DNA from: a virus
Virus genome (UHGV): UHGV-0071094
Reading direction: 5' to 3' (one strand)
Length of the DNA stretch: 31,554 nucleotides
The notes under the pieces were generated by a model that saw nothing but the letters and a program-made list of their open reading frames with translations, was not told the DNA's origin and made no database searches. How positions within the stretch are numbered: position 1 is the stretch's first letter; the number at the start of each line of letters is the position of its first letter. Of this stretch, positions 1-20,045 are shown one piece after another. A program made the translations under genes and the position numbers.

Positions 1-95
1 CCCAAAGAATGTGATGAATGTACTCAGAAGTCTTCCTGTGCTGGTTATTTCAGTTCATCAAAAGGCCGTTTTCATCAACCACCGAGACCAATTTT

Positions 96-731
96 ATGAA
101 AAAATTTAATTTCGCTGCTCTGCTTCCGGGATTTTTAGCACTCAATAATTCTGTATGGGCAAGTGATTCCTCCACTGGTGCAAGTGATTTGCCCGGTATG
201 ACTCTTAATGAGCATGATTTAGTTATAGCTCCACTTAACACGGAAGTACCTTTCTACATTGCAGGGCATCGTAGTCATAGCTCCCATCGAAGCCATAGTT
301 CTCATAGATCTTCGTCTGGTGGTGGGTACTATGGTGGAAGCACTCCTTATTATCCTAAAACATACAGTTCACCAAGCTCATCAGGCTCATCCACTTCAGG
401 TACAAATTCGCCATCGTCTTCTTCATCTGTTCGTTCGCTTCGCTCTAATGACGCCGATGCCTCTACGACCACAAACTCTGCTGGAATGAATGGAACTACT
501 CGTGCAAGTAGTGGGCTGGCTTCTGATACTGAAAAGCGTAAGCGTTTGATCATGCGAGTGCAGTTCGCATTACTGGATAAAGGGTTTTATAACGGCAATA
601 TAGACGGAAGTATGGGGCCTGCGACACGAACTGCTATCAAAAATTACAGAGTTGCATATGGGCTTCCTACTCCAGTAAGAGAAACATTAGATGCTCAGTT
701 ATTGAACTCTTTGAATATACTGGCTCGTTAA
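96..731 (+). CDS. Secreted protein with His/Ser-rich low-complexity region and C-terminal putative peptidoglycan-binding domain
   Basis: ORF 18..731; internal Met at 96 gives a signal-peptide-like N-terminus (MKKFNFAALLPGFLALNNSVWA); HRSHSS x3 and a Ser-rich linker; C-terminal ~60 aa (RVQFALLDKGFYNGNIDGSMGPATRTAIKNYRVAYGLPT) resembles the PG_binding_1 consensus. Start codon choice is inferred. Confidence 0.55.
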   Translation: MKKFNFAALLPGFLALNNSVWASDSSTGASDLPGMTLNEHDLVIAPLNTEVPFYIAGHRSHSSHRSHSSHRSSSGGGYYGGSTPYYPKTYSSPSSSGSSTSGTNSPSSSSSVRSLRSNDADASTTTNSAGMNGTTRASSGLASDTEKRKRLIMRVQFALLDKGFYNGNIDGSMGPATRTAIKNYRVAYGLPTPVRETLDAQLLNSLNILAR

Positions 732-749
732 AATATTAGGTAAAATAGA

Positions 750-2357
750 ATGAAGATAAAACTCTCTATTTATAAAACAAAAAGGTTTAGCGATGATATT
801 GATCAGGTTTTGAATTTGGAAAGGGTCAAAAGACCTGTTGAATTCGAGATGGAGGATGCACGAGCATATCTATATGTAAAGGAGTACATGGACCCAAAAC
901 CTCCTGAATGGACCACCTTTTTTATGGACCAAAATCCTGGCATAGAACCTGATTTCTTCGGTATGAATAGTAGCACAGGAGCAGTATTAGTTATTGAAGC
1001 TAACAATTCCAGATATCTTATTCCCTTTGGAACCGGTCATCACTTAATCAATGATGGCAGCATTGTCAAAGGATTTGGGCTTAAAACAACTCTTAATAGT
1101 ATAGAACATAAAAAAATTCGCAGTTTAGATAAAGGCAGTCACAACGAAACGAACCTGTTAACTCGCAGTCAGAGCAGTAAAGAAGTCGATATATACAACC
1201 TAAAAATAGATTCTGAGATGGATATTCTCACAACTCTCACAGGCACTTCGACAGAAGATATTTTAGGAAGTAAAATTACTGGCAAAGATGCTTTTGTGAT
1301 CATGCCGGATATTGAATTGAAGGCTATTCCAGCACTATTGACCAAAATAGACTCTATTTACTTATTACCTCTTCCTGAAGAATTCGAATGGGTTAACAAT
1401 ATCAAGGAGGCTGATGAACAAGAAGTTGAGATATTGGATTCGCTTTTGATTGATCGGATAAAGGAAAAAGACTTCAATGATTTATGGCTTGGAGAGCCAG
1501 AAATAGTAGACTGGGAAAATCAAATAGGCTATTGCTTTGATAAGAGACAAAGATTCATTCATGAAACCTTATCAATATACCATGTTTGTGATTATTTTGA
1601 TGGTAAGAAAACTGAAGTAACTGTTGATGAACTCAAAAAAAATTATCTGCATGTTTTGAATGCCGATTTTGAATCGATAAAAAAATGGTCTTTATATAGG
1701 TGCCTCTATGCCGAGATAAAAGAAGGTGATCAGAACTATATTCTTCGAGACTCTATATGGTATGTTGCAGATAGGAATTTTGTATCGACTATTGATGATG
1801 AAATGAAAAAAATAATTCATTATGAGGAGTCGGATAAATTCCCTGTATATTCATATAAACGAGAGGAGGATTATAATAAAAAACTTTGCCAAGATGATAA
1901 TTCCTTTACACACATGGATCAGAAATTCATTCATCATGGTGGTGGTAAAAGTAAGATTGAATTTTGTGATCTTATCAGAGGTCAATCAGATTTTATCCAT
2001 GTAAAATATTATACTGGTTCGCAAAGTATGAGCCATCTTTTTTCACAAGGATTTATAGGTTCTGAACTTTTTATAAGTGACTCTGAATTTCGAGGCAAAC
2101 TTAATGAGAAACTACCTGCTCATATAAAATTAGCCGATCACATAAATAGACCAGATGCTAAAAAATATAAACTAGTTTTCGCCATAGCTTCTAATAAAAA
2201 TCTTCCCGAAGATTTACCTTTGTTTTCTAAAGTAAACTTGAAAAATTTCCACAAGAGTATTACCAATTTTGGGTATGAGGTCAGGATCTGCAAAATTGCT
2301 GTGGACCCAGATATTTATAAAAAGAAGCTATGTAAACCACAAAAGAACAAGCTTTAA
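750..2357 (+). CDS. Hypothetical 535-aa protein of unknown function; possible nuclease-like C-terminal region
   Basis: Long uninterrupted AT-rich ORF starting 19 bp after the stop of the upstream gene (operon-like). No canonical NTPase motif seen. C-terminal segment IEFCDL...SDFIHVKYY loosely resembles a PD-(D/E)xK-type pattern (weak inference). Confidence 0.5.
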   Translation: MKIKLSIYKTKRFSDDIDQVLNLERVKRPVEFEMEDARAYLYVKEYMDPKPPEWTTFFMDQNPGIEPDFFGMNSSTGAVLVIEANNSRYLIPFGTGHHLINDGSIVKGFGLKTTLNSIEHKKIRSLDKGSHNETNLLTRSQSSKEVDIYNLKIDSEMDILTTLTGTSTEDILGSKITGKDAFVIMPDIELKAIPALLTKIDSIYLLPLPEEFEWVNNIKEADEQEVEILDSLLIDRIKEKDFNDLWLGEPEIVDWENQIGYCFDKRQRFIHETLSIYHVCDYFDGKKTEVTVDELKKNYLHVLNADFESIKKWSLYRCLYAEIKEGDQNYILRDSIWYVADRNFVSTIDDEMKKIIHYEESDKFPVYSYKREEDYNKKLCQDDNSFTHMDQKFIHHGGGKSKIEFCDLIRGQSDFIHVKYYTGSQSMSHLFSQGFIGSELFISDSEFRGKLNEKLPAHIKLADHINRPDAKKYKLVFAIASNKNLPEDLPLFSKVNLKNFHKSITNFGYEVRICKIAVDPDIYKKKLCKPQKNKL

Positions 2358-2517
2358 ATAAATTTTTCAATGCCAGAGACGTTTGCCAGTTCATGCAGAA
2401 AATCGCTTTTGTAAGTTACAGTCCATGTATCTTGGTTTAGAACAAAGTGGTGTCAAAAAAGGTTTATGCCTTGGGAGGGAATAAGGGGCTGGGAAATTTA
2501 ACCCCTTATAGAGTTGT

Positions 2518-2738
2518 TATGCCGCAATAGCTTTAAATTTTTGAGCAATGACATAATCACTCCACCACTGCATGAGAACCATTCGTTCTGCGAGATACTC
2601 GGCACGATTATAGGCTGCAATTATTTAATCTTTCTTCGAGTGGGCAAGGGCCGCTTCTAAGACACCAGTCCTGAACTTACCAGATTCCTCTGTCGCTGTT
2701 CTCGCAATAGATCTCATTCTGTTAACCATAAGTTCACC
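2518..2738 (-). pseudogene. Remnant of a tyrosine integrase 3' end (last ~65 codons, internal TAA)
   Basis: Minus-strand translation gives ...SGKFRTGVLEAALAHSKKD*IIAAYNRAEYLAERMVLMQWWSDYVIAQKFKAIAA*, matching the C-terminal motif of P4-type integrases (compare int at 12083..13345). About 85% identical over ~170 bp to 6490..6660. Confidence 0.55.
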
Positions 2739-2856
2739 TCCTTAAACCGTTCGAATAATTACGGCTTATACTGCCTACTTATGCTAATATCTAAGAGAAG
2801 CCATTGTGGTTGTGTAAGTATACTTCTTGGTTTATTTCGACTATAGAAAACCATAC

Positions 2857-3753
2857 CTATGACTGGCTGTTTTCAGCAAGAGTCTTATCATCTAAAGAAT
2901 TTATTTTCGAAATTCTTTTTAACTCATTAAGATAATCAACCTCGTTTTCCAAGAACCAATGAAGAACTTTAGAGTTACCAAGTAATTTATTAATATATGA
3001 CTGTATTATAACGAATTTCAACATATCTGAGCCATACTCGGTTTGAAGCTTTTTTGTTTCTTCCGAAGTTGTTGCCATTTCTTGTTCCAGACGAAGTATG
3101 GTTTTTTTTATGTCCTTTTTATAGGGAGTGTTTTTCCCTTTATTTACTATCATTGATGCCGGTGTTGCATCCAAGATGCTCATTGCAAATTTTTTACTAT
3201 AATTATCAAAATTAATCATTGTACCGACTGCTTCAATTTGACGAATTGGTTTCATTTTCCTCAAAACATCAAATGTAGCCTTAGGTATAGGTTTATCAGA
3301 AAGTTTCGCAATCACACTTGGATCTATACCGTTCATTACATTAGCTTTATCTTTTATGGCATCAACAGATATGCCCAAAGCAGCACTAAGTTTTTCAATT
3401 GATACTTTTGCCAGAGACTTAATTATCATTCTATGTTCTTCAACTACATTTATATGATTCACTTGTTTGTTAGGAGTGAACGCATCATCTATGCTCGAAA
3501 GTATACATGGAGCTTTTTCTATGCCTAAATCTTTTAAAGCCTCAACCCGCAAATGGCCATCGAGTATCTTAATGGCATCTTTATCTTTGTCATAGAACAC
3601 TATTATTGGTTCAATAATACCTAAGCTTTCAATTGAGGTAACTATCTGATGATATTTATGACTTAGCTTTACATTTTCTAACAATTCCTTAGAGGGAATT
3701 AACTTGTTAGTTTCTAAATAAATAAAATTGTCGCCAAAACGTATCTGAATCAT
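2857..3753 (-). CDS. ParB/Srx-superfamily (ParB N-terminal domain-like) protein
   Basis: 298-aa ORF with ILDGHLRVEALKDLG motif typical of the ParB N-terminal nuclease-like domain; start overlaps the stop of the upstream gene by 4 nt. Confidence 0.6.
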   Translation of the reverse strand: MIQIRFGDNFIYLETNKLIPSKELLENVKLSHKYHQIVTSIESLGIIEPIIVFYDKDKDAIKILDGHLRVEALKDLGIEKAPCILSSIDDAFTPNKQVNHINVVEEHRMIIKSLAKVSIEKLSAALGISVDAIKDKANVMNGIDPSVIAKLSDKPIPKATFDVLRKMKPIRQIEAVGTMINFDNYSKKFAMSILDATPASMIVNKGKNTPYKKDIKKTILRLEQEMATTSEETKKLQTEYGSDMLKFVIIQSYINKLLGNSKVLHWFLENEVDYLNELKRISKINSLDDKTLAENSQS

Positions 3754-4646
3754 TTTGATGCCTCTTTGTTTATTGGATTGAGGATCTGAGATGGCAGTTC
3801 TGATAGATTCTCTTGTTCAAGTATATTTTGAAAGCTTTTATTCATCATTATGACGTTAAAAATCTCATTTACTATCAGCAAGTTAGTTTTAATAAATTTA
3901 GAGTTGTTATAAACAGATTTATGTTCAGCGATACTATTTTCATAAAGCTCAATTAACTCCTCAGCAGTCATTCTTTTTGATGGTTTGTGATAATAAAACC
4001 CGGCTGCTTTTGCACCTTTATTCCCAATTGTTCGCTGATTTAGAATGTGTTTTATCTTTATAATGTCCCGGCTTTTTATTAATTTTTTATCATATGCTTC
4101 GGTAAGAATATCTTGTGCTTCTTCAGTGTCACATCTTGCAAATTGTACTGCGAGATACAGAGGCAAATTCCCCCGTTCGACTGCAGAGAGAAGTTTATGC
4201 TCTCCCTTATCAAGAAGCATATTTATACTGCTCACCCAGTTCGATGAATACCCAGTAATCTCACTTATTTCGGAGTCTGAAAGTCCTCTGTTTTTCATAT
4301 CTTTTATTATCTGTAATAACTCATTGGAACGTGGTCTCCTCCTTGCAATGTTTTCAACCAAACTCATAACATAAGCATCTTCTTCTGATACATCTCTTAT
4401 AATTGCTGGAATAATGGTTTCACCTAATGCAACGAGCGCCTCTATTCTCCCTTGGCCACAAATTAAAGCATATTTGAAGTCGTCTTCATCAATCGCTCTT
4501 ACGCTTATAGGCTTGCTTAACCCTCTTTTTTTTATGCTTTCCTTAATTTCTTCATGCACTACCTTATTTCTAGTTCGCGGGTTAAGAAATTTTATTTTGG
4601 CAATTTCAATTTGGATTATTGGGAATTCATTTGATTCAGGCAGCAT
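3750..4646 (-). CDS. ParB/RepB-like protein (ParB N-terminal domain)
   Basis: 298-aa ORF; GQGRIEALVALG and VENIARRRPR motifs resemble ParB box regions; overlaps the upstream recombinase gene by 11 nt. Confidence 0.6.
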   Translation of the reverse strand: MLPESNEFPIIQIEIAKIKFLNPRTRNKVVHEEIKESIKKRGLSKPISVRAIDEDDFKYALICGQGRIEALVALGETIIPAIIRDVSEEDAYVMSLVENIARRRPRSNELLQIIKDMKNRGLSDSEISEITGYSSNWVSSINMLLDKGEHKLLSAVERGNLPLYLAVQFARCDTEEAQDILTEAYDKKLIKSRDIIKIKHILNQRTIGNKGAKAAGFYYHKPSKRMTAEELIELYENSIAEHKSVYNNSKFIKTNLLIVNEIFNVIMMNKSFQNILEQENLSELPSQILNPINKEASK

Positions 4647-6192
4647 ATAGTTCCCTCACTTTCATGCGAGTAATAATTTGTAGAAGTTTATCCAGATTAT
4701 CAAATCTATAGAGATCTAATCGAATGTTGTTTGTTTCCGTCATCCACATTTTACTATATTCGTTTTCAATCTTTGGTATGATATAAAAATCAAGTGGTGA
4801 AATATTTTGTGAATCCATTCGTATAACAATTGTTATGTCTGCTTTCTGTGAGTTATCAAACCGGACTTTCCATCTGAGTTTACCCGATTTCATATGTGTG
4901 CATTTAGTAATAAGGACGGAAATTAAAAACTCATCATTGATGTAAAGCATTGGTGCATATTTATATTCGTCTATATAGCAGTTGCTTTTTAAAATTTCCC
5001 CCTTAAAATCCTCAATTATGCCTGAGTAAAATGATCTTAGTGCTTCATTTATTTGGATATAGCTGTAATCATGTTCTGGCTTATAACCAATCAAAGTATA
5101 TGCTCTTAAAAGACCACCAAATCGGGTTCTGTAAACAGAAGATGAAGGGCCTGTATCATCTTCATCAATGATAAAGCCAGATAGTTTTCCATTAGATTCT
5201 AATTTTTGTTTTAGCTTTTCTAAAAGCTCTTCATTAGTCAAATGTACGGATCGGAGCTGAATTATTTCTTGAGCTTTATTATATTTTTTCTTTGAAATAA
5301 TGGGTTTATATGCCTTGTCGCATCTAACCCATTCATTTTTTGGGTTTTTTACAAGCCTACTTTTTAGTTTAGATGAGGTTTTGTTATATATGTTATTTCC
5401 AATATATTTTTCATTTGTCAAGATTTGATGTATTTTTGCACGAGTCCATAGTGTTCCATTTTCTGCAGGTATATTCTGTTCATTTAGTCTCTCAGCAATA
5501 ATGAATTCTGGCATGTTATCATCTATAAAGAGATCATAGATGCTATTTACAATTTTTATCTCATTTTTTGGTCCCGGAATTAATATCACCCTATCTGTTT
5601 GAATACTCTTTCTTTTGCGGAAGCCCAATATTTCTTTAGCTATGCCATTTTCATCTACTAAAAGACGTCTTAGCCCATAACCAGCCATTCCGCCTTGATG
5701 ATAACCAAGCTTTATTAAATTTGCTTGCCCTATAAATACCTTTTCTGATAAATTCCTGCTGTGATATGCAGCACTAGATCTTTTTATATTCAGTATAACA
5801 GAAGACTCTAAAGGGAAATCTTTAGTGGGAATAGGTTCGGAACAGTATATAAGATCTACACCGTTTCTCTCAAATAGAAAGGAATAATATGCAGCTTCAT
5901 CACTATTTTGAAAACGACCAAAACGGCTCACATCATAAAATAATACAGCCTGTATATCTATTTTCTTTTGTTCTACATCACTAAGTAACTGCTGCAAAGA
6001 ATGCCGGCCTATGATACTGACTCCGCTCTTACCTGCATCATCGTAGGTATAAGCGATTTCCATATTGTTCTTTTCAGCATAATCTTTGATATATTCGGAC
6101 TGATTATGTAAAGAATATTGCTGATGGTCGGTAGACATCCGCAAGTACTGTGCGACCCTAACTTTATGATTTTTATCATTTTCGCTAGCCAT
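4636..6192 (-). CDS. Large serine recombinase (resolvase N-terminal catalytic domain plus recombinase domain)
   Basis: 518-aa ORF; N-terminal VAQYLRMSTDHQ motif with catalytic Ser as in the resolvase/invertase domain; size and C-terminal extension typical of large serine recombinases. Confidence 0.8.
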   Translation of the reverse strand: MASENDKNHKVRVAQYLRMSTDHQQYSLHNQSEYIKDYAEKNNMEIAYTYDDAGKSGVSIIGRHSLQQLLSDVEQKKIDIQAVLFYDVSRFGRFQNSDEAAYYSFLFERNGVDLIYCSEPIPTKDFPLESSVILNIKRSSAAYHSRNLSEKVFIGQANLIKLGYHQGGMAGYGLRRLLVDENGIAKEILGFRKRKSIQTDRVILIPGPKNEIKIVNSIYDLFIDDNMPEFIIAERLNEQNIPAENGTLWTRAKIHQILTNEKYIGNNIYNKTSSKLKSRLVKNPKNEWVRCDKAYKPIISKKKYNKAQEIIQLRSVHLTNEELLEKLKQKLESNGKLSGFIIDEDDTGPSSSVYRTRFGGLLRAYTLIGYKPEHDYSYIQINEALRSFYSGIIEDFKGEILKSNCYIDEYKYAPMLYINDEFLISVLITKCTHMKSGKLRWKVRFDNSQKADITIVIRMDSQNISPLDFYIIPKIENEYSKMWMTETNNIRLDLYRFDNLDKLLQIITRMKVRELYAA

Positions 6193-6489
6193 GCACGAAA
6201 CCTCATGGATGATTCAATACAATGTAGATGATAAAATTGATCAATTTCTAACCAATTTCAACTGTTTTATCATTGATTAGAGCGAATTTAGTAAATCTTC
6301 GAGGTGTATGATAATCGAGAAGATATGTGAATTATGTAGCTGATATGACCAACAGCTTTCGGTATGTGGCCTCAAGTTACCCATCCGTAAATGGCTATGC
6401 TTAGTCAACATTTGTTAATATGTGTGATTATAATTCTTTAACTAAATCAAGATAGTTAACCCATCAGGGGAGAGTTATGCGGCAATAAC

Positions 6490-6955
6490 TTAGCATTTTT
6501 GAGACGCAACATAGTCACTCCACCATTGCATGAGAACCACCCGTTCTGTGGGATATTCTGCACGATTGTAGGCTGCAATTATTTCATCTTTCTTCGAGTG
6601 GGTAAGGGCGGCTTCGAAGACATCAGTCCTAAACTTTCCAGACTCATCAGCAGCATCGCATACCGTGAGCTACAAGCTTACCTCCGAACCCCATACGGAT
6701 TATGGCCGCATTAGCTGTTTGCTCATGCATATGGTTAAGAGGAGCCTTTATGCTTGGAAACACCCATTCACGATGCCCACTTATCACTTTCATTGACTCT
6801 AGGACTCGTAAAGCTTCTTTGCTTAGTGGAACTTTGTGAGGCTTCTTCATTTTCATAAACTCAGCCGGGATGTTCCACATACCAGTTTCTATATCAATAT
6901 CTGTCCATCTTGTGCGAACCGCTTCAGCGGGCGAACCCATGTTAGAAGTTGCCAC
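6490..6955 (-). pseudogene. Truncated, frameshifted tyrosine integrase (C-terminal catalytic half only)
   Basis: ORF 6647..6955 encodes an integrase catalytic-domain segment (WTDIDIETGMWNIPAEF...HREWVFPS...AHGMR). The C-terminal ...DESGKFRTDVFEAALTHSKKDEIIAAYNRAEYPTERVVLMQWWSDYVASQKC* continues in another frame (about 14-nt deletion relative to the copy at 2518..2738). The N-terminal ~220 codons are absent. Confidence 0.7.
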
Positions 6956-7377
6956 TCAATCAGTAGCCTTGTTTCTAACCGGATAGAAGCATTGTTTAGA
7001 GCAACTAGGAAGCGGGGGGATTACTGTTTCTGGTAAAGACTCTTTTGGTGGTGAACTGGACGCCTGGAATCAATATGAGAAAACTACTTAGTGCAACAGG
7101 AGCTGAATTAACTAATGGTGTAACATTACCTAGTGGTTGGCTTGTCAGTGGTATGAGCAAGGGAGCCAATAATCCTGAAAATTTAAGAGCGTTTGCTGTT
7201 TGTATGAGACAATGGCAGCATAAAAATTCTAGGATAAACTTTTGCCTTAATTAAAATGATAGGTGGTATATTTATAGGGGTTATCTTAGGAAGAATATTT
7301 TTAATGCTATTGATGAGAAGTATCGGACATGATTTAATGTTGTTTATGTTTTAGAATTCTCATATTCAGGCGGTTTC

Positions 7378-7743
7378 ATGATAAAACAGAAGTTAAAGAA
7401 TGACTGGGATATTCCTGCAATTCTTCGTCTTACTAAAGAACAAAAAAGGCTAAAATTGTCTGTTCAAGAAGTTGCAGACCTTCTGGACTTAAGCTCATAC
7501 TTTTTTGAGTTAGCTGTCGATGAGAAGGTGGATTTCAAATTTTATGACCTTCCTGAAAAGGTTAAAAAAAAGCTGCATTATGCAGGTTTTGATATTTTCT
7601 ATTTAATGACTGGTGAGTATTCAGGTAGTGAACCGGCATTGAAAATCGCCAGTTTTGAATATTCTATAAAGGATATGTCTCCTGAAGAAAAAAATGAAGT
7701 GAGAGTGTTGATAGAAAATATACCGATAACAAAACCACACTAA
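7378..7743 (+). CDS. Hypothetical 121-aa protein
   Basis: AT-rich ORF with no recognised domain; weak RBS; immediately upstream of a membrane protein gene. Confidence 0.4.
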   Translation: MIKQKLKNDWDIPAILRLTKEQKRLKLSVQEVADLLDLSSYFFELAVDEKVDFKFYDLPEKVKKKLHYAGFDIFYLMTGEYSGSEPALKIASFEYSIKDMSPEEKNEVRVLIENIPITKPH

Positions 7744-7812
7744 AATTACCTTTAATCCTATCATGTTATATTGGTAGGAAAAATTAGAACGTAATGATAT
7801 TGAGGTATAATC

Positions 7813-8436
7813 ATGGCCTTATCATCTGTAGCTATTGTGGCTGGTGTAGCTACTTTGGCAGCATCTCTTTTCAAAAATACAGAACTTCGGGTGATAGATA
7901 TCGTTGAGTTGTCAAAGCTCAGTGTTAACGATATTGAAAACAACCCTCAGTTAAAAATTGTCAAAAATGATATTAATGAACATATAACAGGCATTAAAGA
8001 CCCTGCATTTCATGAGGTTCTAATTGAAATTATGGCTAAGCATAATAAACCTGTTGGTTACTTCAAAAAAGTTGATGGTAGGTTGCAGTATGACCATTCC
8101 TATTATATTTCAATTAATAAGATGGGCTGGGGGCAATACATTAAAAAGTTAATTAATAATCCAAATGATTGGGTTGCAACTTTGATATATGTTATTTTTA
8201 TTATAACAATGTTCGGAATAGCAGTAGATCTTGATAAGGATCCACAAACATTTAATCAAGGTCTGTCTATATTTTTATCAGGTATGGGGGGATTAATGTT
8301 TAGCTTTTTATTAAAAGGCTTATCGGTTCAATGGAGAAATAGCTTTCATAATGTCAAGGATTTCGAATATAAAGAATTGTTTAAAGAGTACGCTAACAGT
8401 AAAATAGATGAAATCATATCATCAAACTCTAAATAA
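7813..8436 (+). CDS. Hypothetical membrane protein (207 aa)
   Basis: GAGG RBS 6-8 nt upstream; hydrophobic segments (ALSSVAIVAGVATLAASLF; WVATLIYVIFIITMFGIAV; LSIFLSGMGGLMFSFLL) suggest about 3 transmembrane helices. Confidence 0.5.
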   Translation: MALSSVAIVAGVATLAASLFKNTELRVIDIVELSKLSVNDIENNPQLKIVKNDINEHITGIKDPAFHEVLIEIMAKHNKPVGYFKKVDGRLQYDHSYYISINKMGWGQYIKKLINNPNDWVATLIYVIFIITMFGIAVDLDKDPQTFNQGLSIFLSGMGGLMFSFLLKGLSVQWRNSFHNVKDFEYKELFKEYANSKIDEIISSNSK

Positions 8437-8539
8437 TGATTCGGAATCATTTCTACCGTTGGCTGGGGTACATAAAAGCGTAATATTTTTATTCATTCTG
8501 ATAAAGCCAAGTCACATGGCTTGGCTTCAGATATATTGA

Positions 8540-8872
8540 TTAAGTATTATCTTTAATCGTTGTTGTTGTTCCGTTGGTTTTCACGGAAGCGATACCTTTT
8601 TCACGGGATTGTTTGGTCGAGTACATCTGGCTTGTACCGATCACATGATGATTAGCCGCCCGTAGGTTAAAATAGGACTTGCCGTTAGATGAGTCTTTCA
8701 GATCGTAGCGTTCATCAAGTGGGCTGTTTGCCTGAACTGATATAATGCCATTTTCTGCAGAACTCTTGGTTGTGTAAAGCTCGCTGGTGAGGATAATTTC
8801 TCCATTACCGGCTTTCAGAACAAATTTATACTGTTCATTACTGCTCTTATCCAATTCGAACCAACCAGCCAT
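8540..8872 (-). CDS. DUF1508 (YegP-like) tandem-repeat protein
   Basis: 110-aa ORF with two internal repeats (...YKFVLKAGNGEIILTSELYTTKSSAENGIISVQ / ...YFNLRAANHHVIGTSQMYSTKQSREKGIASVK) characteristic of the DUF1508/UPF0339 family. Confidence 0.65.
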   Translation of the reverse strand: MAGWFELDKSSNEQYKFVLKAGNGEIILTSELYTTKSSAENGIISVQANSPLDERYDLKDSSNGKSYFNLRAANHHVIGTSQMYSTKQSREKGIASVKTNGTTTTIKDNT

Positions 8873-9650
8873 ATTAACTCCTTGATAAAGTTGTGATTTT
8901 TACGGCCCAGTGATGAAGAACGAAGCGGGCAAGTTCAGTATGCCTGAAACAAAAATTGTTTCCAATATGTTATGTTTGTATCGGTAGCTGGGAACAAGAC
9001 TACACACTACGAAATGAGGCTTAGCTGTCGCCCACCAGTGTTGGCAGGTATGCCTTAGTGGGAGTCTTAGAGCGGAGGGTATCTTGAATCAATGTCTATT
9101 GCCATATTTACACGACACACGATATATTTTCTTTAGAGTCATATCTTAGGAAACAATAACGGCGACTTGAGCAAAAGTATCTAATATCAATAGATTTTCG
9201 TTAATTTAAAAAAATAGGTGCTCTCTCATAAAATCTGTAGGGTACTTGGTCGTGAATAAATTGCTGAGTTCATGTTGCGATGTCATTATTTGTCATCTTC
9301 CATGTCTCATAATTATCCTAACGTATAGGTTCAATGAAATTCCTTTATTCCTGTGTCTAATCTAATCAATCTAGCAATCTAACCAAACCTGTGTGTGGCG
9401 ATTTTACCTTGTTTAAATGTTCTAGGAATGCCTTTATCTTTTAGTATTAATTATATTAAAGGTTTACTTTCACGATGAGTATTTGCTGTTTCATCGGGAG
9501 GTTAAGATATTCATAATCTATCCTGACTGTAACGAAGATTAATCATTGATTTTATTTATATGTGAAAAAATCACTTTAAATATTGATTTTTTATGATTTA
9601 TGTAGTTTAATTTAAATGTATAGGTGATTTTTTCACATTGGAGAGGTGCT

Positions 9651-11009
9651 ATGTTAATCAGATTCTCAGTCGAAAACTACAAGTCATTCAGAGATAGAGT
9701 CGAGTTTTCAATGGTTTCGAGTAAAGTTCGAAGCCATCCATCACATGTCGTTAAGGCAACTTCTGCGAACGATATAAGTGTGTTAAAAGTTGGAGTTATC
9801 TATGGAGCTAATGCTTCTGGTAAATCCAACATCATCAAAGCAATGAAACATGCTCAAAATATGATTTTGAAAGGAAGTAAAGCTGGTACTAACCTTCCCT
9901 ATGCACCTTTCAGGCTTGATGATGATTTTGAAAAGAAACCCAGCAGATTTGAATTTGAAATTAAAATCAATGGCAAGAACTATGCATATGGATTCTCAGC
10001 TGATCAAAAATCCATTAAAGAAGAGTGGTTGTATGAAATAAACAAGAAGGATGACATTCTTATTTATGAAAGAAGTAATACAACTCACTTTAAATTTGAA
10101 AACATAAAATTTAAAAATGAAGAAGACGAACAATTCCTAAACTTTACAGCAAGAGGAACAAGCGAAAACTCTTTGTTTTTGTACGAATGTTTTGATAGGA
10201 ATGTTCTGAAGGATTTGAATTACATTGTACCAATTTCTGATGTTTTTAAATGGTTTAAAGCTAAGTTACAAATAGTTTTCCCGAATTCTAAATATAGAGA
10301 CCTAGATTTTGGATCTGCTTCTGATGAAAAAGAAGGAGAGCTTATAACTGATATTCTAAAAGATTTTGATACCGGTGTGTCAAAGTTAGTATTAAGAAAA
10401 GTTAGTTCATTTGATGATATAAAACTTCCTCCCAATTTCAAGGACCAGATCATAGAGGATCTTAAATCTAGTAAGGCTGTTGTAATTTCAGGGCCAAGAA
10501 ATAAACGATATAAAGTTGAACTGGGTGAAGATGGAGAAATAACGGTATTTCAATTGATGACGGCCCATAAAGATAAAAATGGTGATGATGTATATTTTGA
10601 ACTCAACCAGGAATCAGATGGTACACAAAGACTTTTTGATATTATACCTGGATTAGTCGAACTTATGTTGAAAGACAAAGTTTATATAATTGATGAAATT
10701 GATCGTAGTTTGCATCCAAAGATTACAAAAACATTTATGAAATTATTCTCTATGAAAACTGTCGGTAAAGACAGTCAACTGATAGTCACCACTCATGAAA
10801 CCGGTCTTTTAGATTTTGAACTTATACGAAGAGATGAGGTTTGGTTTACTGAAAAAAATAAAAGTGGAATTTCGAGAATTTATTCACTCGAAGAATTCCA
10901 GCCTAGGTTTGATAAAGATATACGTAAAGGTTACTTAGTGGGGCGTTTTGGTGGAATTCCTAAAATAAAGAATATATTATCAAACGTTGAAGATTTTCAG
11001 AAGGACTAA
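9651..11009 (+). CDS. ABC/SMC-like AAA ATPase (OLD/AbiLi-like ATPase component)
   Basis: Walker A GANASGKSN; Walker B-like VYIIDEIDRSLH; GGAGAGG RBS before the ATG at 9651 (ORF track start 9624 is less likely); stop 2 bp before the next gene. Confidence 0.7.
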   Translation: MLIRFSVENYKSFRDRVEFSMVSSKVRSHPSHVVKATSANDISVLKVGVIYGANASGKSNIIKAMKHAQNMILKGSKAGTNLPYAPFRLDDDFEKKPSRFEFEIKINGKNYAYGFSADQKSIKEEWLYEINKKDDILIYERSNTTHFKFENIKFKNEEDEQFLNFTARGTSENSLFLYECFDRNVLKDLNYIVPISDVFKWFKAKLQIVFPNSKYRDLDFGSASDEKEGELITDILKDFDTGVSKLVLRKVSSFDDIKLPPNFKDQIIEDLKSSKAVVISGPRNKRYKVELGEDGEITVFQLMTAHKDKNGDDVYFELNQESDGTQRLFDIIPGLVELMLKDKVYIIDEIDRSLHPKITKTFMKLFSMKTVGKDSQLIVTTHETGLLDFELIRRDEVWFTEKNKSGISRIYSLEEFQPRFDKDIRKGYLVGRFGGIPKIKNILSNVEDFQKD

Positions 11010-11011
11010 AA

Positions 11012-11668
11012 ATGCCTCGTGAAAGAAGAGAGTTTGACAGAAGAAGTGGGGTAAAAGACCCGTCTTTAATTGTAATTGCTTGTGAAGGAGAGAAAACAGA
11101 GCAGGACTATTTCAATAGTATATCGGAACTATGTGATGAGTTAGGATCACGTTTACAACTTAAAGTTCTCCCGCCGCGAGAAGAGGGGCATAGTGCGCCT
11201 AGACATGTTTTAGACCAAATGGATAAATATAAAAAAGAATTTGGAATTAAAGTGAATGATGAATTATGTCTGGTAATCGATAGGGATAAACAATCATGGA
11301 CAGAGGCTACTATAAGTGAAGTTGCTCAGTTTTGTCATGCCAAACAATATATTCTGGCTTTAAGTAATCCATGTTTTGAATTATGGCTTCTTATACACCA
11401 TTATGATGTAATGCTCCTCGGTGAGGATGAAAAAAGAAGTATTTTAAGAAATAAAAATGGGTATATGAAAAGCAAACTACGGGATGTTATTGGACAATAT
11501 AACCCAAGTTCTATTAATATTCATGATTTCTGGGGGGTAACTGAAATCGCGATTGACAGAGCTAAACGTTTAGATGTTAATCCAGCTGAGAGATGGCCTA
11601 ATGAAATAGGAAGTCGTGTGTATATAATCATGGAGAAAATACGTCAGTCAATTAATAATCAATTATAA
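11012..11668 (+). CDS. RloB-like / Toprim-domain protein (putative nuclease partner of the ATPase)
   Basis: 218-aa ORF; N-terminal IVIACEGEKTE and downstream LVIDRDKQ give a Toprim-like E...DxD signature; translationally coupled to the ATPase gene. Confidence 0.6.
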   Translation: MPRERREFDRRSGVKDPSLIVIACEGEKTEQDYFNSISELCDELGSRLQLKVLPPREEGHSAPRHVLDQMDKYKKEFGIKVNDELCLVIDRDKQSWTEATISEVAQFCHAKQYILALSNPCFELWLLIHHYDVMLLGEDEKRSILRNKNGYMKSKLRDVIGQYNPSSINIHDFWGVTEIAIDRAKRLDVNPAERWPNEIGSRVYIIMEKIRQSINNQL

Positions 11669-12082
11669 TTATCCTATGTATTCCTTCGCATTTATTCCAT
11701 GCTTTAATAAGTGTATAAGGTTTTAGCTAAGTTGATTTTTTTATTGACTTGGCTTTTTTGTGTCTGGTTTGATGGTCTAGTTATGAGTGTAGGTATTTTT
11801 CGATTAAAGCGTATATCTTGATTTTTATATTAAGAATCATTCCTGATTTCTACTGAAGCCAAGAGAAAATTATTAATATATTTCATAGGATGATTTTGAA
11901 TTAGGATCTAAACAATAAGATATGGTTCACGTAAATTTATTTTGCTGGAGTGATAACTCGATTGGGTGTTTATTGAGGGGGGGCAAAAATATTGGTTTGA
12001 CATTATTATTACTACCTTTTTTTGTTTCTTTGCTCAGTGTTTACGTTGCTTTTTAGCGTGCAAAAAATAGAGAACTATTATA

Positions 12083-13345
12083 CTAATTCATTTTCTTTAT
12101 TCTCTGGGCGAATTCAAACGGTGTAATGTGTTCTTTTCTGTTGGCATTAAGGTAGTCAGCCCACCATTGTAACATGAGTTTTCTCTCTTCGAGATGTTCC
12201 GCTTTGTGGATATATGCTGCCCGAACCGAGTTACGCTCTTGGTGGCTCATTTGACGTTCTACGGCGTCTCTTGACCATAACCCAGATTCGATTAATGCAC
12301 TACAAGCCATAGTTCGAAAACCGTGACCACAAACTTCAGCTTTCGTGTCGTAACCCATGGTGCGAAGAGCCTTGTTAACAGTGTTTTCGCTGATTGGTTT
12401 GTCATCGCGACTAAAACCAATGAACATAAGATCCTTTTCTCCACTTATAGCTTGGAGCCTTTTAAATAATACTACAGCCTGCTTACTTAGCGGCACAAGA
12501 TGAGGGGTTTTCATTTTTGAGCCCCTATTTGAATACTTAACCCCCTCCAATTCTCGTCTTTCTGCAGGGATTGTCCATAAGGAGTTTTTGAAATTCACCT
12601 CAGACCAACGAGCGAATCTAAGTTCACTTGAACGGATGAAAGTCAGTAGAGTTAATTGAACTGCTATTTGAGTGATACCTTTCCCTTTATAGGCATCAAT
12701 CCGTTTGAGAAGCTCAGGAAGTCGTTCGAGGGGAAGGGCAGGGCGGTGATTACTCTTGGCAGTGGTTACAGCGCCTGCGAGGTCGTAAGCTGGGTTTTGG
12801 TCAATCAAAGCATTGTGAACAGCATACCGCATGATGGCAGTGATTCTTTGTTGTAAACGGGCAGCAAGTTCAAGATGTCCAGTTTCCTCTGCTTTTTTCA
12901 GAGGAACAAGTAAATCACGAGTTTTAAGCTCACTAATGTTCCGCTTACCGATAACAGGAAATACATGAGTGATCAGGCTGTTTAATACGGTAGTTCTGTG
13001 ACTGTCTGACCAGGTTCTGTTGCTTGAGTGCCAGTCTCTGGCAACAGTTTCAAAAATGAGTAAGCCTTTCTCTTCAATCTTTTCTGTTTTTCGCTTTTCG
13101 CCAGGGTCAACATTGTTGGCAATGAGTTGCCTTGCTTCTTCTCTTCTACGACGAGCTTCTGCTAAAGACACTTCGGGATAAACACCAAGCGCCAACATTT
13201 TTTGCTTACCAGAAAAGCGATATTGAAGCCGCCAGTATTTTGAACCCGTAGGGTGAACCAGGAGATGCATACCATCCCCATCTGTTAACTTGACGGGCTT
13301 TTCAGTAGGTTTCGCATTTCTGACTTTTACCTCAGTTAGTGCCAT
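12083..13345 (-). CDS. P4/CP4-57-type tyrosine integrase (Arm-DNA-binding DUF4102 plus catalytic domain)
   Basis: 420-aa ORF; N-terminus MALTEVKVRNAKP...KLTDGDGMHLLV...GSKYWRLQYRF typical of the P4-like integrase arm-binding domain; C-terminal HGFRTMA...AAY...LMLQWWADYL catalytic motifs. Sits at the AT-rich/GC-normal boundary. Confidence 0.9.
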   Translation of the reverse strand: MALTEVKVRNAKPTEKPVKLTDGDGMHLLVHPTGSKYWRLQYRFSGKQKMLALGVYPEVSLAEARRRREEARQLIANNVDPGEKRKTEKIEEKGLLIFETVARDWHSSNRTWSDSHRTTVLNSLITHVFPVIGKRNISELKTRDLLVPLKKAEETGHLELAARLQQRITAIMRYAVHNALIDQNPAYDLAGAVTTAKSNHRPALPLERLPELLKRIDAYKGKGITQIAVQLTLLTFIRSSELRFARWSEVNFKNSLWTIPAERRELEGVKYSNRGSKMKTPHLVPLSKQAVVLFKRLQAISGEKDLMFIGFSRDDKPISENTVNKALRTMGYDTKAEVCGHGFRTMACSALIESGLWSRDAVERQMSHQERNSVRAAYIHKAEHLEERKLMLQWWADYLNANRKEHITPFEFAQRIKKMN

Positions 13346-13520
13346 TGTGACCTCCTGATGATGGTATCTGCATTATCGAACTTACAATACCAACAGTTAT
13401 ACCAACAAAACAAGCTGGATGTCCGTATATCCCAACAGTCCTTGGTAGACCATGGTTAAAGTGTACTTCATTGAAATGATTGGGAAAAATAGACTTTGAT
13501 ATACTTCGGTAGACAGGGTT

Positions 13521-13536
13521 CTGGCGTCCCCTGCAG
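13521..13536 (-). other. Candidate prophage attR core (tRNA 3'-end-like sequence)
   Basis: Minus strand reads CTGCAGGGGACgCCA, resembling the acceptor-stem 3' end plus CCA of tRNA-Arg (argW as I recall it: ...CCTGCAGGGGACACCA); located between the excisionase and the next integrase, where an attR is expected. Confidence 0.4.
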
Positions 13537-13609
13537 ACATCTACTTGAGGCAGCAGGGGATTGATTAGAATGGTATTTTTTAGATGTGAGAAATATTTTA
13601 CCCGCTATT

Positions 13610-13810
13610 TTACCCATTGGCGCGGCTTAAGAGCTTATTTTTGAATTCACAATGGTCACGATATAACCATCTTGCTCGCCCGTGGATAACTTTGGCTTTA
13701 GGCAGGTCTCCGGACTTAATCCGGTCATAGATGAAGGTTTTACCGAAGCCAGTATCGGCCATGATGAATTTCAAATCAACCAGGGAATCAGGCTGTAGTT
13801 CGTGTTGCAT
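13610..13810 (-). CDS. torI: AlpA/TorI-family excisionase (winged-helix recombination directionality factor)
   Basis: 66-aa ORF (MQHELQPDSLVDLKFIMADTGFGKTFIYDRIKSGDLPKAKVIHGRARWLYRDH...) with AlpA-like HTH; position at the prophage end opposite the intS-like integrase matches the KplE1 layout. Gene symbol by analogy, not verified. Confidence 0.75.
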   Translation of the reverse strand: MQHELQPDSLVDLKFIMADTGFGKTFIYDRIKSGDLPKAKVIHGRARWLYRDHCEFKNKLLSRANG

Positions 13811-13828
13811 GAGTGCTATCTCCGAATA

Positions 13829-13844
13829 GGGAATCGAACCTGCA
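13829..13844 (-). other. tRNA T-arm-like 16-mer (TTGCAGGTTCGATTCC) immediately upstream of the excisionase gene
   Basis: Minus-strand sequence matches the T-stem/T-loop (GGTTCGATTCC) region of a tRNA and diverges where the acceptor 3' strand would begin. Confidence 0.45.
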
Positions 13845-13852
13845 AATCAGGC

Positions 13853-13876
13853 AAGAAAAAACCGCCATCAGGCGGC
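13853..13876 (-). terminator. Rho-independent terminator-like hairpin with U-run (minus strand)
   Basis: GCCGCC-TGAT-GGCGG stem-loop followed by TTTTTTC on the minus strand, overlapping the stop of the small ORF upstream. Confidence 0.4.
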
Positions 13877-14035
13877 TTGGTGTTCTTTCAGTTCTTCAAT
13901 TCGAATATTGGTTATGTCTGCATGTGCTATCTGCGCCCATATCATCCAGTGGTCATAGCAGTCATTGATGTTCTCTGCTTCGATAACTCTGTTGAATGGT
14001 TCTCCATTCCATTCACCTGTGACTCGGAAGTACAT
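13868..14035 (-). CDS. Small hypothetical phage protein (55 aa)
   Basis: Minus-strand ORF MYFRVTGEWNGEPFNRVIEAENINDCYDHWMIWAQIAHADITNIRIEELKEHQAA preceded by a GGAGA RBS; below the ORF-track size cut-off; the overlapping plus-strand ORF 13802..14050 is judged spurious. Confidence 0.35.
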   Translation of the reverse strand: MYFRVTGEWNGEPFNRVIEAENINDCYDHWMIWAQIAHADITNIRIEELKEHQAA

Positions 14036-14222
14036 TTATCATCTCCATAAAACAAAACTCGCCGTAGCGAGTTCAGATAAAAGAAATCCCCGCGAATGCG
14101 AGGATTGTTAGTTGCGCTCTGCTGCTGCCTTAGCCATTACCATATCCACCAAACTTCACCAGACATGATTCTCGCAATCACTATCATCACCAAAGTGATA
14201 ATCACAACTTTAACTGGCGGCA

Positions 14223-14951
14223 TCATTCACCATCCTGCTGCGGTGCTGCTGGCAGTGGCATCCAGTGGGTAATACTACCTGGATATAAACTCTTTGCTGG
14301 CCCCCAGTAGCCATCTGTATTAACACGCATAACCTCACAGCCATCAAAACCATCAGTTACAAGAACGTATTCATAAGGTTCCGGCATCCTTTCGCTTACC
14401 GGAATCCAACTATCCGGAGTTCCCGGAGAGTTGCCATTTACATCGAAGTTTGGCTCTGCGTCCTGAACCAGGAGGATGTAACCATTCTTGGCTGTATCAA
14501 GTTCTAACGCCTCGGTGACGGTGCCGAAATAGCGATTGCCTAAATCAGCATCACAAGTGCTTACATCAATGGAAACTTCCATGCCCTCGATTAATTCTGG
14601 CAAGTTGTAAGTTTGGCTTACAGGTTCGGCTTCCAGTTCTGCTATGCGCTTTTTTGCTGCTTCCAGCTCGCCAAGCAGCGCCAAGACGGTAGCCGGATTG
14701 GCTGCGGCGATGAATTCAGCATTGGCCTGCTGTTCCATTTGGAAATCTTCATCGAAACCGCTTTCAGGATGCGCTCCTTCAATTCTGCAAATGGGAATAT
14801 ATCCAGCAGCCTCGCGATGAATTAGCGCATCATCACAATCAAATCGGCTCTCTCCATATTCGAGCGACCACTCACCACACGTTGCTTTTTCTGCCGCTTC
14901 ACGCAGTGCCTGGTAATTAATTTCGCTCACTGTTTGCCTCCTTTGCGCCAC
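14223..14951 (-). CDS. Ead/Ea22-like protein with C-terminal DUF551 domain
   Basis: 242-aa ORF; C-terminal ...[35 protein letters not shown]...THWMPLP resembles DUF551; typical lambdoid early-left accessory gene. Confidence 0.7.
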
Positions 14952-15550
14952 ATCGCATTCAGATATTTGTTGTCATTAACAGAACCGAAACTCTTTCTTT
15001 TAAGCAATTCCTCTCTCGATGGCATTGGCTTTACGCGTTGGCGAATAATCATTTCTGCCGGAAGAATGCCGGGATTGTATGCAAGTCCTCTCATGGTAAA
15101 TTCCTCAGTCATTACTGATAGCGCCATAGCGTGAGCGGTAATTACGCAGGCGCGGGTCAATTTCAGGGAAGTGGGTATATCTGCATCTTTCGCATCATCA
15201 ATGCCGAACAAACCATTGAGGCAATACTTGCGTGCATAAGAGCTTGTAGCTCCAGTAACTTGTGCAGAATCCATTCCTTTCTTGCTTTCTTCCTCTCGTG
15301 CAAGAGCGGTTGCCGTATGACTGTTTTCGCCATCGGTAATAGTTGCCGTGGCTTTCACATAATACCGATCACCAATCAACACAACTTCATCGCTGATTGA
15401 TAAAAACAGGCCATTCAGTAGCGGCTTAACGCCTTCAAGAATATCTTCGCAGCTTCTGTATTTATATTTACCGAATGAGTTGTACTGATTTTTTGGCGCG
15501 TTCAGATTCTCCTGAATGGCAGCCAGTCTTGCGTAAAATTCTTTGCTCAT
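14927..15550 (-). CDS. erf: ERF-family single-strand annealing protein (P22 Erf-like)
   Basis: Translation from the internal Met ([45 protein letters not shown]...) closely resembles phage P22 Erf as I recall it; the ORF-track start 15580 probably over-extends. Confidence 0.8.
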
Positions 15551-15651
15551 ATGATTGTTCTCAGAATGGACATGGCCCAAGGAAATAACGCTGATTTAAT
15601 ACTTCGACTCGGGACAAGTTAAGGCATACCCGCATTCCTTCGCGGTCACCA

Positions 15652-15810
15652 TTATGGCGATACCAGAGAGCTTTCTGCGTGTACATGCGTCTCTGTAACT
15701 TGCTCTCCTTCACTGTGGTTGCAAGTGACATGAATATCTCCTTCGTTACCGATTAATTCTTTCATCTGACGAATGAATTCTTCGTCTGACCAGTTATCTG
15801 TAAAACTCAT
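15652..15810 (-). CDS. Small phage protein (52 aa) in the Arf/early-left position
   Basis: Minus-strand ORF MSFTDNWSDEEFIRQMKELIGNEGDIHVTCNHSEGEQVTETHVHAESSLVSP; its ATG overlaps the stop of the upstream small gene (ATGA). Confidence 0.4.
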   Translation of the reverse strand: MSFTDNWSDEEFIRQMKELIGNEGDIHVTCNHSEGEQVTETHVHAESSLVSP

Positions 15811-15959
15811 TTCCTGCGATACCATGGAAGGTTGATAGCTAATTTCATCTCTTTATTTGCTTCAAGCCACATTTTGGAATCACCAATAAATCTGGCTATT
15901 ACTGCTTTGTTTTGTGCTGCTCGAAGCATCTGGTGATTGATGGCTATTTCATTGCGCAT
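15807..15959 (-). CDS. Kil-like small protein (50 aa)
   Basis: Minus-strand ORF MRNEIAINHQMLRAAQNKAVIARFIGDSKMWLEANKEMKLAINLPWYRRK; the ...RFIGDSKMW... segment resembles lambdoid Kil as recalled; assignment tentative. Confidence 0.35.
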   Translation of the reverse strand: MRNEIAINHQMLRAAQNKAVIARFIGDSKMWLEANKEMKLAINLPWYRRK

Positions 15960-19341: not shown

Positions 19342-19343
19342 CC

Positions 19344-20036: not shown

Positions 20037-20045
20037 GGGGTAATC

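Follow-up and report, generated by a model that had tools for sequence, protein, structure and literature searches.

When a run of same-orientation integrase genes lies beside a tRNA gene, it is routinely read as the trace of serial integration, and genomic islands are divided into separate elements on that basis. The virus genome UHGV-0071094 (31,554 nucleotides [nt], the whole of which is here called the window) raises the question of how far such a run can be read in this way. The window carries four P4-type integrase genes or gene fragments, all on the minus strand: fragment A (positions 2517 to 2801), fragment B (6475 to 7018), the intact 420-amino-acid integrase gene int420 (12083 to 13345), and the intact prophage integrase gene intS (30347 to 31504). 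An initial annotation had read them as the trace of successive elements that entered one tRNA site and pushed older elements outward, each leaving an integrase followed by a distinct cargo block. With the Prokaryotic Genome Annotation Pipeline (PGAP), Pfam, and tblastn, the four genes and fragments were confirmed near the positions first given, and both fragments are integrase derived upon alignment (tblastn E values of 1e-89 for B and 4e-35 for A). The whole locus is, in our judgment, probably best explained as a tandem of whole elements at the tRNA-Arg gene argW, in which one element is a hybrid island with a block derived from an island at the transfer-messenger RNA (tmRNA) gene ssrA.

The source of the window is an Escherichia coli chromosome: positions 1 to 14000 match 42 complete genomes (99.8 to 100%, over at least 80% of the length). 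The PGAP annotation was taken from KD602, in which a window position equals the position in locus L001 minus 18000. Positions in other genomes are given by locus label (L001, L003, and L009, KD602; L004, BL21; L006, NWU_1; L007, 33-6; L008, E10; L010, S792; L014, Kosakonia; L024, a Buttiauxella metagenome-assembled genome; and L100, CP66-6).

Whole elements at argW

The target tRNA had been predicted to lie to the right of the window, and this was borne out. ARAGORN found no tRNA gene anywhere inside the window. In STEC379, argW, encoding tRNA-Arg(CCT), is located 161 nt from the intS homologue and is followed by yfdC, mlaA, and fadL; since 50 nt of upstream sequence separate the start codon of intS from the right edge of the window, argW is expected ~110 nt beyond that edge. 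All four integrase genes and fragments are directed away from argW, and a tRNA gene in an orientation that fits the integrases heads the array both in STEC379 and, beside int420, in prophage-free genomes. The products of int420 and intS share the intact P4-type architecture (Pfam Arm-DNA-bind_3, Phage_int_M, and Phage_integrase).

The specificity of int420 can be read from its relatives in other genera, in which the target tRNA tracks amino acid identity. The relatives with at least 77% identity all had tRNA-Arg(CCT) immediately upstream (11 of 11, ~179 nt away), while tRNA-Phe was upstream of those at 73% identity and tRNA-Leu(CAA) upstream of those at 67 to 70%. The window itself holds a displaced 15-nt copy of the argW 3'-end core (ctgcaggggacGcca; 13522 to 13536, minus strand) between int420 and the prophage gene torI, where the plus strand reads ctgcaggggacGccag. 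This copy matches the published KplE1 core at 14 of 16 positions, and 176 nt separate its end from the start codon of int420. It is the only one in the window, with 0.05 matches expected by chance. Copies of the argW 3' end were sought with a 23-mer (up to 3 mismatches) and a 15-mer (up to 2 mismatches); a two-mismatch match at position 21123 was dismissed because it lies within a prophage coding region. The tRNA-side end of the island bears an element-type variant of the core (...GGGGACGCCA), and the presence of the same unusual G in the tRNA 3' end in Trabulsiella, whose integrase is 90% identical to int420, identifies the G as the element-borne version. At the core copy, the left junction (attR) of the prophage coincides with what was once the tRNA end of the int420 island.

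In other E. coli genomes, matches to a query spanning positions 7019 to 13600 occurred solely from position 13522 or 13505 rightward, which identifies the core as the true left prophage junction. Occupancy of argW was surveyed by looking up the exact cargo protein encoded at 7813 to 8436, which returned many assemblies. Of the places shown, five had int420 contiguous with an intact tRNA-Arg gene and yfdC and were prophage free, one had a P22-like prophage at argW, and one (L092) had a CbeA/DUF987/RadC element between int420 and the tRNA side. The sequences were identical up to TGGCGTCCCCTGCAG, beyond which the window enters the prophage and the prophage-free loci run into the tRNA gene. L092 diverges four bases deeper into the tRNA sequence than the prophage junction, after TGGCGTCCCCTGCAGGAAT; its CbeA antitoxin, DUF987, and RadC genes (L092, 15700 to 17100) are inserted at the same core.

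The opposite end of the int420 island lies to the left of the window and was seen in two genomes. In KD602, the argW 3' end recurs as a second copy, of the native variant (TGGTGTCCCCTGCAGGAATCGAA), beside a DUF6387 gene, with 42,756 bp separating it from the copy near int420, to its right. Beyond it stands a fifth minus-strand integrase gene, the product of which is 48% identical to IntS and which starts 175 nt away. In the prophage-free CP66-6, the distal copy carries a one-base deletion and is 44,864 bp from the intact argW; the DUF6387-side att sequence is TGGTGTCCC(C)TGCAGGAATCGAA, and chromosomal genes of the csc type follow, without the fifth integrase. The direct repeats of the tRNA 3' end therefore bound the prophage and an int420 island of 43 to 45 kb, and not blocks headed by fragment A or B.

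The fifth integrase gene of KD602 (L003, 10515 to 11905; 396 amino acids) has its own native-type argW core copy and heads an insertion sequence (IS)-rich region of more than 40 kb (L009) that encodes PapB, an HsdR-like protein, TerB, a DEAD helicase, and Ag43. In CP66-6, the distal att abuts genes for a csc-type oligosaccharide transporter of the major facilitator superfamily and a kinase (L100, 123 to 2356), with no further island at that point.

A 22-nt tandem motif, TTGTTGGTATAACTGTTGGTAT (13387 to 13408, minus strand), provides putative arm-type binding sites for int420. The int420 relatives of four other genera have the motif conserved ahead of the gene as well, and in the 49.9-kb CP66-6 locus it occurs in two places only, just inside each island end, with the distal copy 53 bp inside the distal att. 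We infer that these copies are probable arm-type sites, which would make the two island ends a cognate pair. In the int420 relatives of other genera, no repeat of at least 11 nt that could represent a distal att was found within 11 kb.

The prophage, the L092 element, and the fifth-integrase island each showed independent presence or absence among strains, and serial integration at argW is thus demonstrated for whole elements. By the same comparisons, int420 is a genuine argW integrant, and the order of arrival at argW is island first and prophage later. To this extent the proposal that successive elements pushed older ones outward stood for the prophage and the int420 island, as judged from the displaced core copy, the varied occupancy, and KD602; it did not extend to fragments A and B.

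Positions 1 to 13536 of the window were invariant in 42 to 43 complete E. coli genomes, and no complete E. coli genome carried int420 or its cargo without the rest of the block. The same region was 99.98% identical (3 mismatches) in two assemblies, L091 and L095. Their flanks are only 74 to 80% like E. coli, so the hosts belong to another genus; the best matches of these flanks were to Trabulsiella and Kosakonia (77 to 80%). The sub-blocks of positions 1 to 13536 always occurred together, and none was present or absent on its own. This stretch is hence a single co-inherited and co-transferred unit, an outcome that the initial annotation had itself set against its reading, and the whole island of ~43 to 45 kb, as delimited in KD602 and CP66-6, is one att-bounded unit that contains both A and B.

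Ancestry of fragments A and B

Fragments A and B keep only parts of the catalytic domain and align lengthwise with P4-type integrases of 409 amino acids. Fragment B was annotated by PGAP as a frameshifted tyrosine-recombinase pseudogene (6490 to 7017) with a missing N terminus. By tblastn, positions 7017 to 6478 correspond to codons 225 to 409 of a 409-amino-acid integrase (90 to 100% amino acid identity), with frame changes near 6930 and 6652 and a premature stop, and Pfam recognized a partial Phage_integrase domain at 6647 to 6955 (4e-10). Fragment A was annotated as an integrase pseudogene (2517 to 2741) with an internal stop and a missing N terminus. With the BL21 ssrA-site integrase as the query, tblastn extended it to positions 2801 to 2520, codons 316 to 409 (72% amino acid identity), so that the fragment comprises 94 codons rather than the ~65 first estimated. 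It contains several in-frame stops, and its catalytic His is lost, with NRMR replacing HGMR. Decay increases outward as had been described, from the intact int420 through B, with 185 codons, to A, with 94 codons and stops.

An alignment of the four integrases, which the initial annotation had called for, did not unite them. Over 175 bp of DNA the two fragments show 84% identity, but they share only 32 to 36% amino acid identity with int420 and IntS; they represent a third integrase lineage. IntS and int420 belong to argW-targeting lineages; A and B do not. Intact or IS-split relatives of A and B adjoin ssrA in BL21, E10, and S792 (79 to 89% nucleotide identity). The nearest intact relative of fragment B is the 409-amino-acid integrase of BL21 (89% nucleotide identity), the gene for which adjoins ssrA and is followed, as in the window, by genes for a large serine recombinase (SerRec) and two ParB proteins; BL21 positions 5367 to 9594 correspond to window positions 2806 to 7018 at 93.9%, and the BL21 islet terminates at IS1. 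Fragment A is ~79% identical to intact ssrA-site integrase genes at the nucleotide level, and the 3' end of the intact ssrA-adjacent integrase gene of S792 is ~90% identical to A over 183 bp.

A counterpart of the island is found at ssrA in E10, where the order is ssrA, integrase (split by IS3), SerRec, ParB, ParB, fragment A, TIGR04141, and hxsACBD, continuing with a mob/relaxase region, three recombinases, and DUF6387. From SerRec through Hxs, the E10 and KD602 proteins are 97 to 100% identical, and the DNA homology between the two islands spans window positions -9068 to 7018 at 84 to 98.6%. A fragment A pseudogene is present at the equivalent position in the islands of both 33-6 and E10, and in 33-6 it is located between the second ParB gene and a different cargo. 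Approximately 16 kb of the island, comprising SerRec-ParB-ParB, fragment A, TIGR04141/Hxs, and the mob region, is on these comparisons of ssrA-lineage ancestry.

The right-hand limit of this ancestry is sharp. In local DNA alignments to three intact genes, fragment B homology ends at 7017 to 7018; a tblastn extension to 7066 was ruled out on the same alignments. Position 7018 is the end of all ssrA-type homology and hence a breakpoint. No copy of the argW core (up to 2 mismatches in 15 nt) was found beside A or B in positions 1 to 13000, and Rfam gave no RNA-family match at an E value of ≤1 in positions 2300 to 13700. A search for a copy of the ssrA 3' end at the distal end of the BL21/window islet, near position 2806, gave no convincing repeat. 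To judge from a count of places per record, a third integrase copy of the A or B type is probably absent from AR_0119. With intact relatives at ssrA and no argW core adjacent, the proposal that A and B mark separate argW integrations was not upheld; they are leftovers within one hybrid island.

The ssrA-type integrase alleles are themselves mosaic. Between BL21 (L004, 9036 to 10265) and S792 (L010, 6981 to 8210), DNA identity is 94 to 100% in codons 61 to 180, 73 to 76% in codons 196 to 255, and 82 to 91% beyond, which indicates recombination inside the integrase gene.

Island backbone, cargo, and prophage content

Between fragments A and B, the minus strand encodes two ParB/RepB-family proteins (2857 to 3753 and 3750 to 4646; Pfam ParB_N and RepB) and the 518-amino-acid SerRec (4636 to 6192; Pfam Resolvase and Recombinase). 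SerRec shares 99% amino acid identity with its counterparts in E10 and 33-6 and 46 to 51% with homologues in other genera. In Rahnella, Kosakonia, and Pantoea, the int420-type integrase gene at argW has homologues of SerRec-ParB-ParB (43 to 51% amino acid identity) immediately after it (L013, 11658 to 14975; L014, 11689 to 14974; L018, ~11687 to 14966). A P4-type integrase, SerRec, and two ParB/RepB proteins form a conserved four-gene module of these argW islands and of E. coli ssrA islands, with SerRec-ParB-ParB as island backbone. The notion of a distinct cargo block behind each integrase therefore does not hold for the block after B, which is conserved backbone and not cargo.

Cargo variation among the islands begins exactly at the stop codon of fragment A or of the corresponding integrase. 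In the window, the slot after fragment A holds hxsA (96 to 731, plus strand; annotated by PGAP in KD602), the last gene of the hxsDBCA cluster, which is 99% identical at the amino acid level in the E10 ssrA island, and a TIGR04141/DUF6119 gene (750 to 2357, plus strand; Pfam DUF6119, 6e-127; NCBIfam TIGR04141, 2.4e-156). In 33-6, it holds Gabija (L007, 5077 to 8982; GajA, 1.9e-273; GajB, 1.2e-202). Fragment A marks the entrance to this slot, in which defense cargo is exchanged. In S792, genes for a Hachiman-type HamB helicase and a metallo-β-lactamase-fold protein follow the intact ssrA-type integrase (L010, 1950 to 6886).

The segment from 7019 to 9710, which in complete E. coli genomes was found solely together with int420, contains three small hypothetical open reading frames (ORFs) on the plus strand (7075 to 7254, 7378 to 7743, and 7813 to 8436), a YegP/DUF1508 gene on the minus strand (8540 to 8872), and a noncoding gap of ~840 bp (8873 to 9710) in which Rfam gave no match at an E value of ≤1. 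The gap separates YegP from a predicted AbiL antiphage system (9711 to 11668, plus strand), an adjacent gene pair encoding the AAA ATPase AbiLi (9711 to 11009; PADLOC, 7.3e-80; Pfam AAA_21) and the RloB protein AbiLii (11012 to 11668; PADLOC, 3.2e-23; Pfam RloB). PADLOC assigned no defense role to TIGR04141, Hxs, SerRec, the ParB proteins, YegP, or the small ORFs, apart from a weak match of a ParB domain to a methyltransferase model. The suggestion of a defense hot spot is reasonable for the slots, in view of AbiL in the window and of Gabija in the 33-6 slot, but it does not cover SerRec-ParB-ParB. The YegP region (8502 to 8883) is 82% identical in nucleotide sequence to positions 20359 to 20740 of the Buttiauxella locus L024, where the gene stands ~10 kb downstream of a tRNA-Phe-type integrase and represents an isolated shared cargo piece.

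In KD602, the sequence that precedes the window on its left includes an operon in which three recombinase genes are joined by a small ORF of ~130 amino acids (L001, 3725 to 8878). The corresponding operon of E10 (L008, 2465 to 7236) is 30 to 46% identical at the amino acid level to that of KD602, despite neighbors at 89 to 100%, which suggests that this GInt-like operon moves between islands as a module of its own. The annotations of KD602, E10, and CP66-6 include a relaxase, and one is also encoded by the Kosakonia island (Pfam Relaxase). From these comparisons, the family shares a layout of P4-type integrase, SerRec, two ParB proteins, cargo slot, mob/relaxase region, three-recombinase operon, and DUF6387, and its members use different tRNA or tmRNA sites. 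NWU_1 has a diverged member at a LysR/pao locus, with a truncated LysR gene and paoD adjacent and without a P4-type integrase. This member (L006, 1 to 19646) encodes the recombinase trio, relaxase, hxsDBCA, TIGR04141, ParB, ParB, and SerRec; compared with KD602, its cargo is 66 to 84% identical at the amino acid level and its backbone just 30 to 61%.

The remainder of the window (13537 to 31554) is a defective P22-like prophage of the KplE1/HK620 recombination type. The gene torI (13610 to 13810, minus strand; a match to a PHROG excisionase family) stands at the end opposite to intS, which is annotated as IntS in relatives and was recognized by Pfam. Between them come Erf and cIII, with gp10 immediately after, and then the tail needle, ejection proteins, immI with sar RNA, the tailspike, and the gtr genes. 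A cII-like remnant (~16182 to 16348) precedes gp10 at 16620, and the replication, lysis, terminase, portal, and capsid genes of the KD602 prophage are missing, so that the window prophage has a large internal deletion from cIII to gp10. The sar RNA is the P22 immI antisense RNA (24559 to 24625, minus strand; 65.6 bits, E value of 1.2e-11); no other Rfam family in the window exceeded its gathering score.

Assembly of the locus and relation to known systems

In the first part of the history, which the comparisons above show, a putative integrative mobilizable island of 43 to 45 kb entered argW by site-specific recombination through int420. Later, the P22-like IntS/TorI prophage recombined with the same 15- to 16-nt core, rebuilding argW on its own right side and leaving the core copy at 13522 to 13536 beside int420. 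The ~16 kb that begin at codon 225 of integrase B and extend to the left, the mob region included, derive from a family member of the ssrA site. Recombination between an argW-type and an ssrA-type member may have placed the int420/attP/AbiL module ahead of integrase B through one crossover in the shared backbone, where identity to E10 drops from 98.6% to 84 to 86% and then to ~70%, and one illegitimate joint at 7018. Such an exchange would have stripped B of its first 224 codons and of its att and thereby given the block argW as its target. In the excised circle, the int420 module would adjoin the distal att arm, so that a single replaced segment would explain both ends. Fragment A could be the relic of a still earlier, similar replacement inside the ssrA lineage.

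Several observations weigh against this history. No parent island carrying int420 and the block at 7019 to 12082 but lacking fragment B was found, and in NWU_1, Rahnella, and Pantoea the cargo directly follows the second ParB gene, without an integrase relic. The distal att and the matching motif were observed in KD602 and CP66-6, the left part of the island in the window strain being outside the window. The 42 to 43 E. coli copies are nearly identical, so that recent common descent might by itself account for their co-inheritance, an objection that is addressed by the copies in another genus.

The inner joins could also have arisen by serial integration at ssrA in an ancestor, a possibility that we regard as appreciable but clearly the weaker one. 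An integrase-SerRec-ParB-ParB mini-element would have inserted before an integrase A island, a deletion spanning the junction would have merged the two and truncated A, and the merged island would later have been joined to the int420 module in the same way. This account differs from that given above solely in the mechanism of the inner joins, accretion with deletion instead of recombination. BL21 carries just integrase-SerRec-ParB-ParB at ssrA, but this islet ends at IS1 and may thus have arisen by deletion. There are also simple ssrA islets in which defense cargo comes immediately after an intact A-like integrase, cargo variation starts exactly at the fragment A stop codon (H123 and H124), and in Kosakonia an independent 5'-truncated integrase gene comes right after the second ParB gene. 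Such accretion fits the step from A to B, both integrases being of the ssrA type. It does not account for the join of B to int420, which cannot be same-site accretion because the integrases use different sites, and the relic-free link of the second ParB gene to cargo or relaxase in NWU_1, Rahnella, and Pantoea suggests that SerRec-ParB-ParB is native backbone.

The Kosakonia remnant (L014, 15215 to 15667, plus strand) is an open 5'-truncated tyrosine-integrase catalytic domain in the same orientation. Its Arg, H-x-x-R, and Tyr regions are preserved, and it shares 27% identity with the integrase of BL21. As it belongs to another lineage, relics at the position after the second ParB gene recur.

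Four independent argW elements, each with an integrase and cargo and with the older integrases decaying in place, are now contradicted and highly improbable. The shared orientation away from argW and the decay that grows with distance from the tRNA gene agree with them, and for the prophage and the int420 island such integration holds; but A and B are of an ssrA-site lineage, have no argW core or tRNA-like remnant beside them, and lie within one att-bounded island, the blocks of which were separated in no genome and crossed genera together. Phage e14 at icd is an example of an insertion that brings a replacement 3' gene end. It is likewise highly unlikely that SerRec-ParB-ParB inserts in this way into the 3' part of the integrase gene, with A as the displaced original end. 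A and B do form a direct repeat of 175 to 262 bp (80 to 84% identity) flanking SerRec-ParB-ParB. This model was nevertheless rejected upon comparison of occupied (BL21 and 33-6) and unoccupied (S792) integrase genes, which show no identity step at codon 316; moreover, fragment A is equally distant (~79%) from the BL21, 33-6, and S792 integrases, and SerRec-ParB-ParB occurs in NWU_1, Rahnella, and Pantoea without a flanking integrase repeat. An assembly artifact or chance resemblance of the fragments to integrases can practically be set aside, given the same arrangement in 42 to 43 complete genomes and many independent assemblies and the tblastn E values of A and B.

Tandem accretion, composite islands, and the IntS/TorI module are already established, and the locus adds one case. 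Elements related to ICESt1 are reportedly an example of tandem accretion. Composite islands formed at tRNA or tmRNA genes include the asn-tDNA islands of Klebsiella pneumoniae (PMC4891358), and the tmRNA gene is hot spot 9 in a survey of E. coli defense islands (PMC10121019). As in such tandems, the same tRNA 3'-end core is reused here, older elements lie outward with partial tRNA copies, occupancy varies among strains, and defense systems ride on the elements. The scheme fits the whole elements alone, however (the prophage, the int420 island, and the fifth-integrase island of KD602), whereas the two decayed integrases are internal relics from an ssrA-using lineage.

The prophage resembles KplE1 (CPS-53), HK620, and Sf6, which carry an IntS-TorI module at argW (PMC2951348 and PMC3509656). 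In KplE1/HK620-type prophages, torI encodes the excisionase, is at the end opposite to intS, and the published core is CTGCAGGGGACACCAT (PMC2951348). The window prophage likewise has intS beside argW, torI at the far end, and a duplicated core and is defective. Unlike in KplE1, its distal core is the G variant (14 of 16 positions), inherited from the island that first occupied argW, and its content is P22-like with the large deletion from cIII to gp10.

P4-type integrases with sublineage-specific tRNA targets were described by Williams (2002 and 2003, as cited in PMC10121019). The integrases studied here have the same domains, share the orientation of the tRNA gene, which lies ~180 nt upstream, and have targets that follow clades (Arg, Phe, and Leu for int420 relatives and ssrA for relatives of A and B). 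In this comparison the intact genes are ordinary, and the ssrA-clade relics inside an argW island stand out.

GInt elements carry ginABCD, which encodes three tyrosine recombinases and a small protein; they are defined by this operon at one element end, short imperfect direct repeats at the ends, and circular excision (PMC5385486). By annotation, the gene order and sizes of the recombinase trio and small ORF fit this pattern in KD602, E10, and NWU_1, and in NWU_1 the family member is at a non-tRNA site, bounded on one side by the operon. Unlike in GInt, the operon is nested in an island that encodes a P4-type integrase, SerRec, and a relaxase as well. Like integrative mobilizable elements (IMEs; PMC5704250), the island combines an integrase with a relaxase/mob region, showed no conjugation apparatus in the parts examined, and occurs as near-identical copies across genera (99.98%), although no oriT was identified in it; unlike in IMEs, the SerRec-ParB-ParB trio beside the integrase matched no described IME family.

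The locus is thus an instructive case and not a surprise, an ordinary example of genomic island assembly, and its twist is that the relics within the island stem from a lineage with a different target site. Here the serial-integration reading is half wrong: the att repeats and the strain comparison give a prophage and one island, where the relics would give four pieces. In surveys that delimit islands or defense hot spots, integrase lineage and att repeats should therefore precede event counts. What the relics suggest is that related islands, resident at different tRNA or tmRNA sites, have recombined with each other, a process that would have given an ssrA-type block argW as its new target and carried it across genera almost unchanged. 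A more speculative extension, to which we give only limited credence, is that the family switches its target (ssrA, argW, and possibly others) by swapping the attP/integrase module, each swap leaving a 5'-truncated relic, and that the slot-side relic serves as a homology arm for defense exchange with ssrA islets composed of an integrase and defense genes. If so, nested integrase relics would record the target-switching history of the family rather than its integration history.

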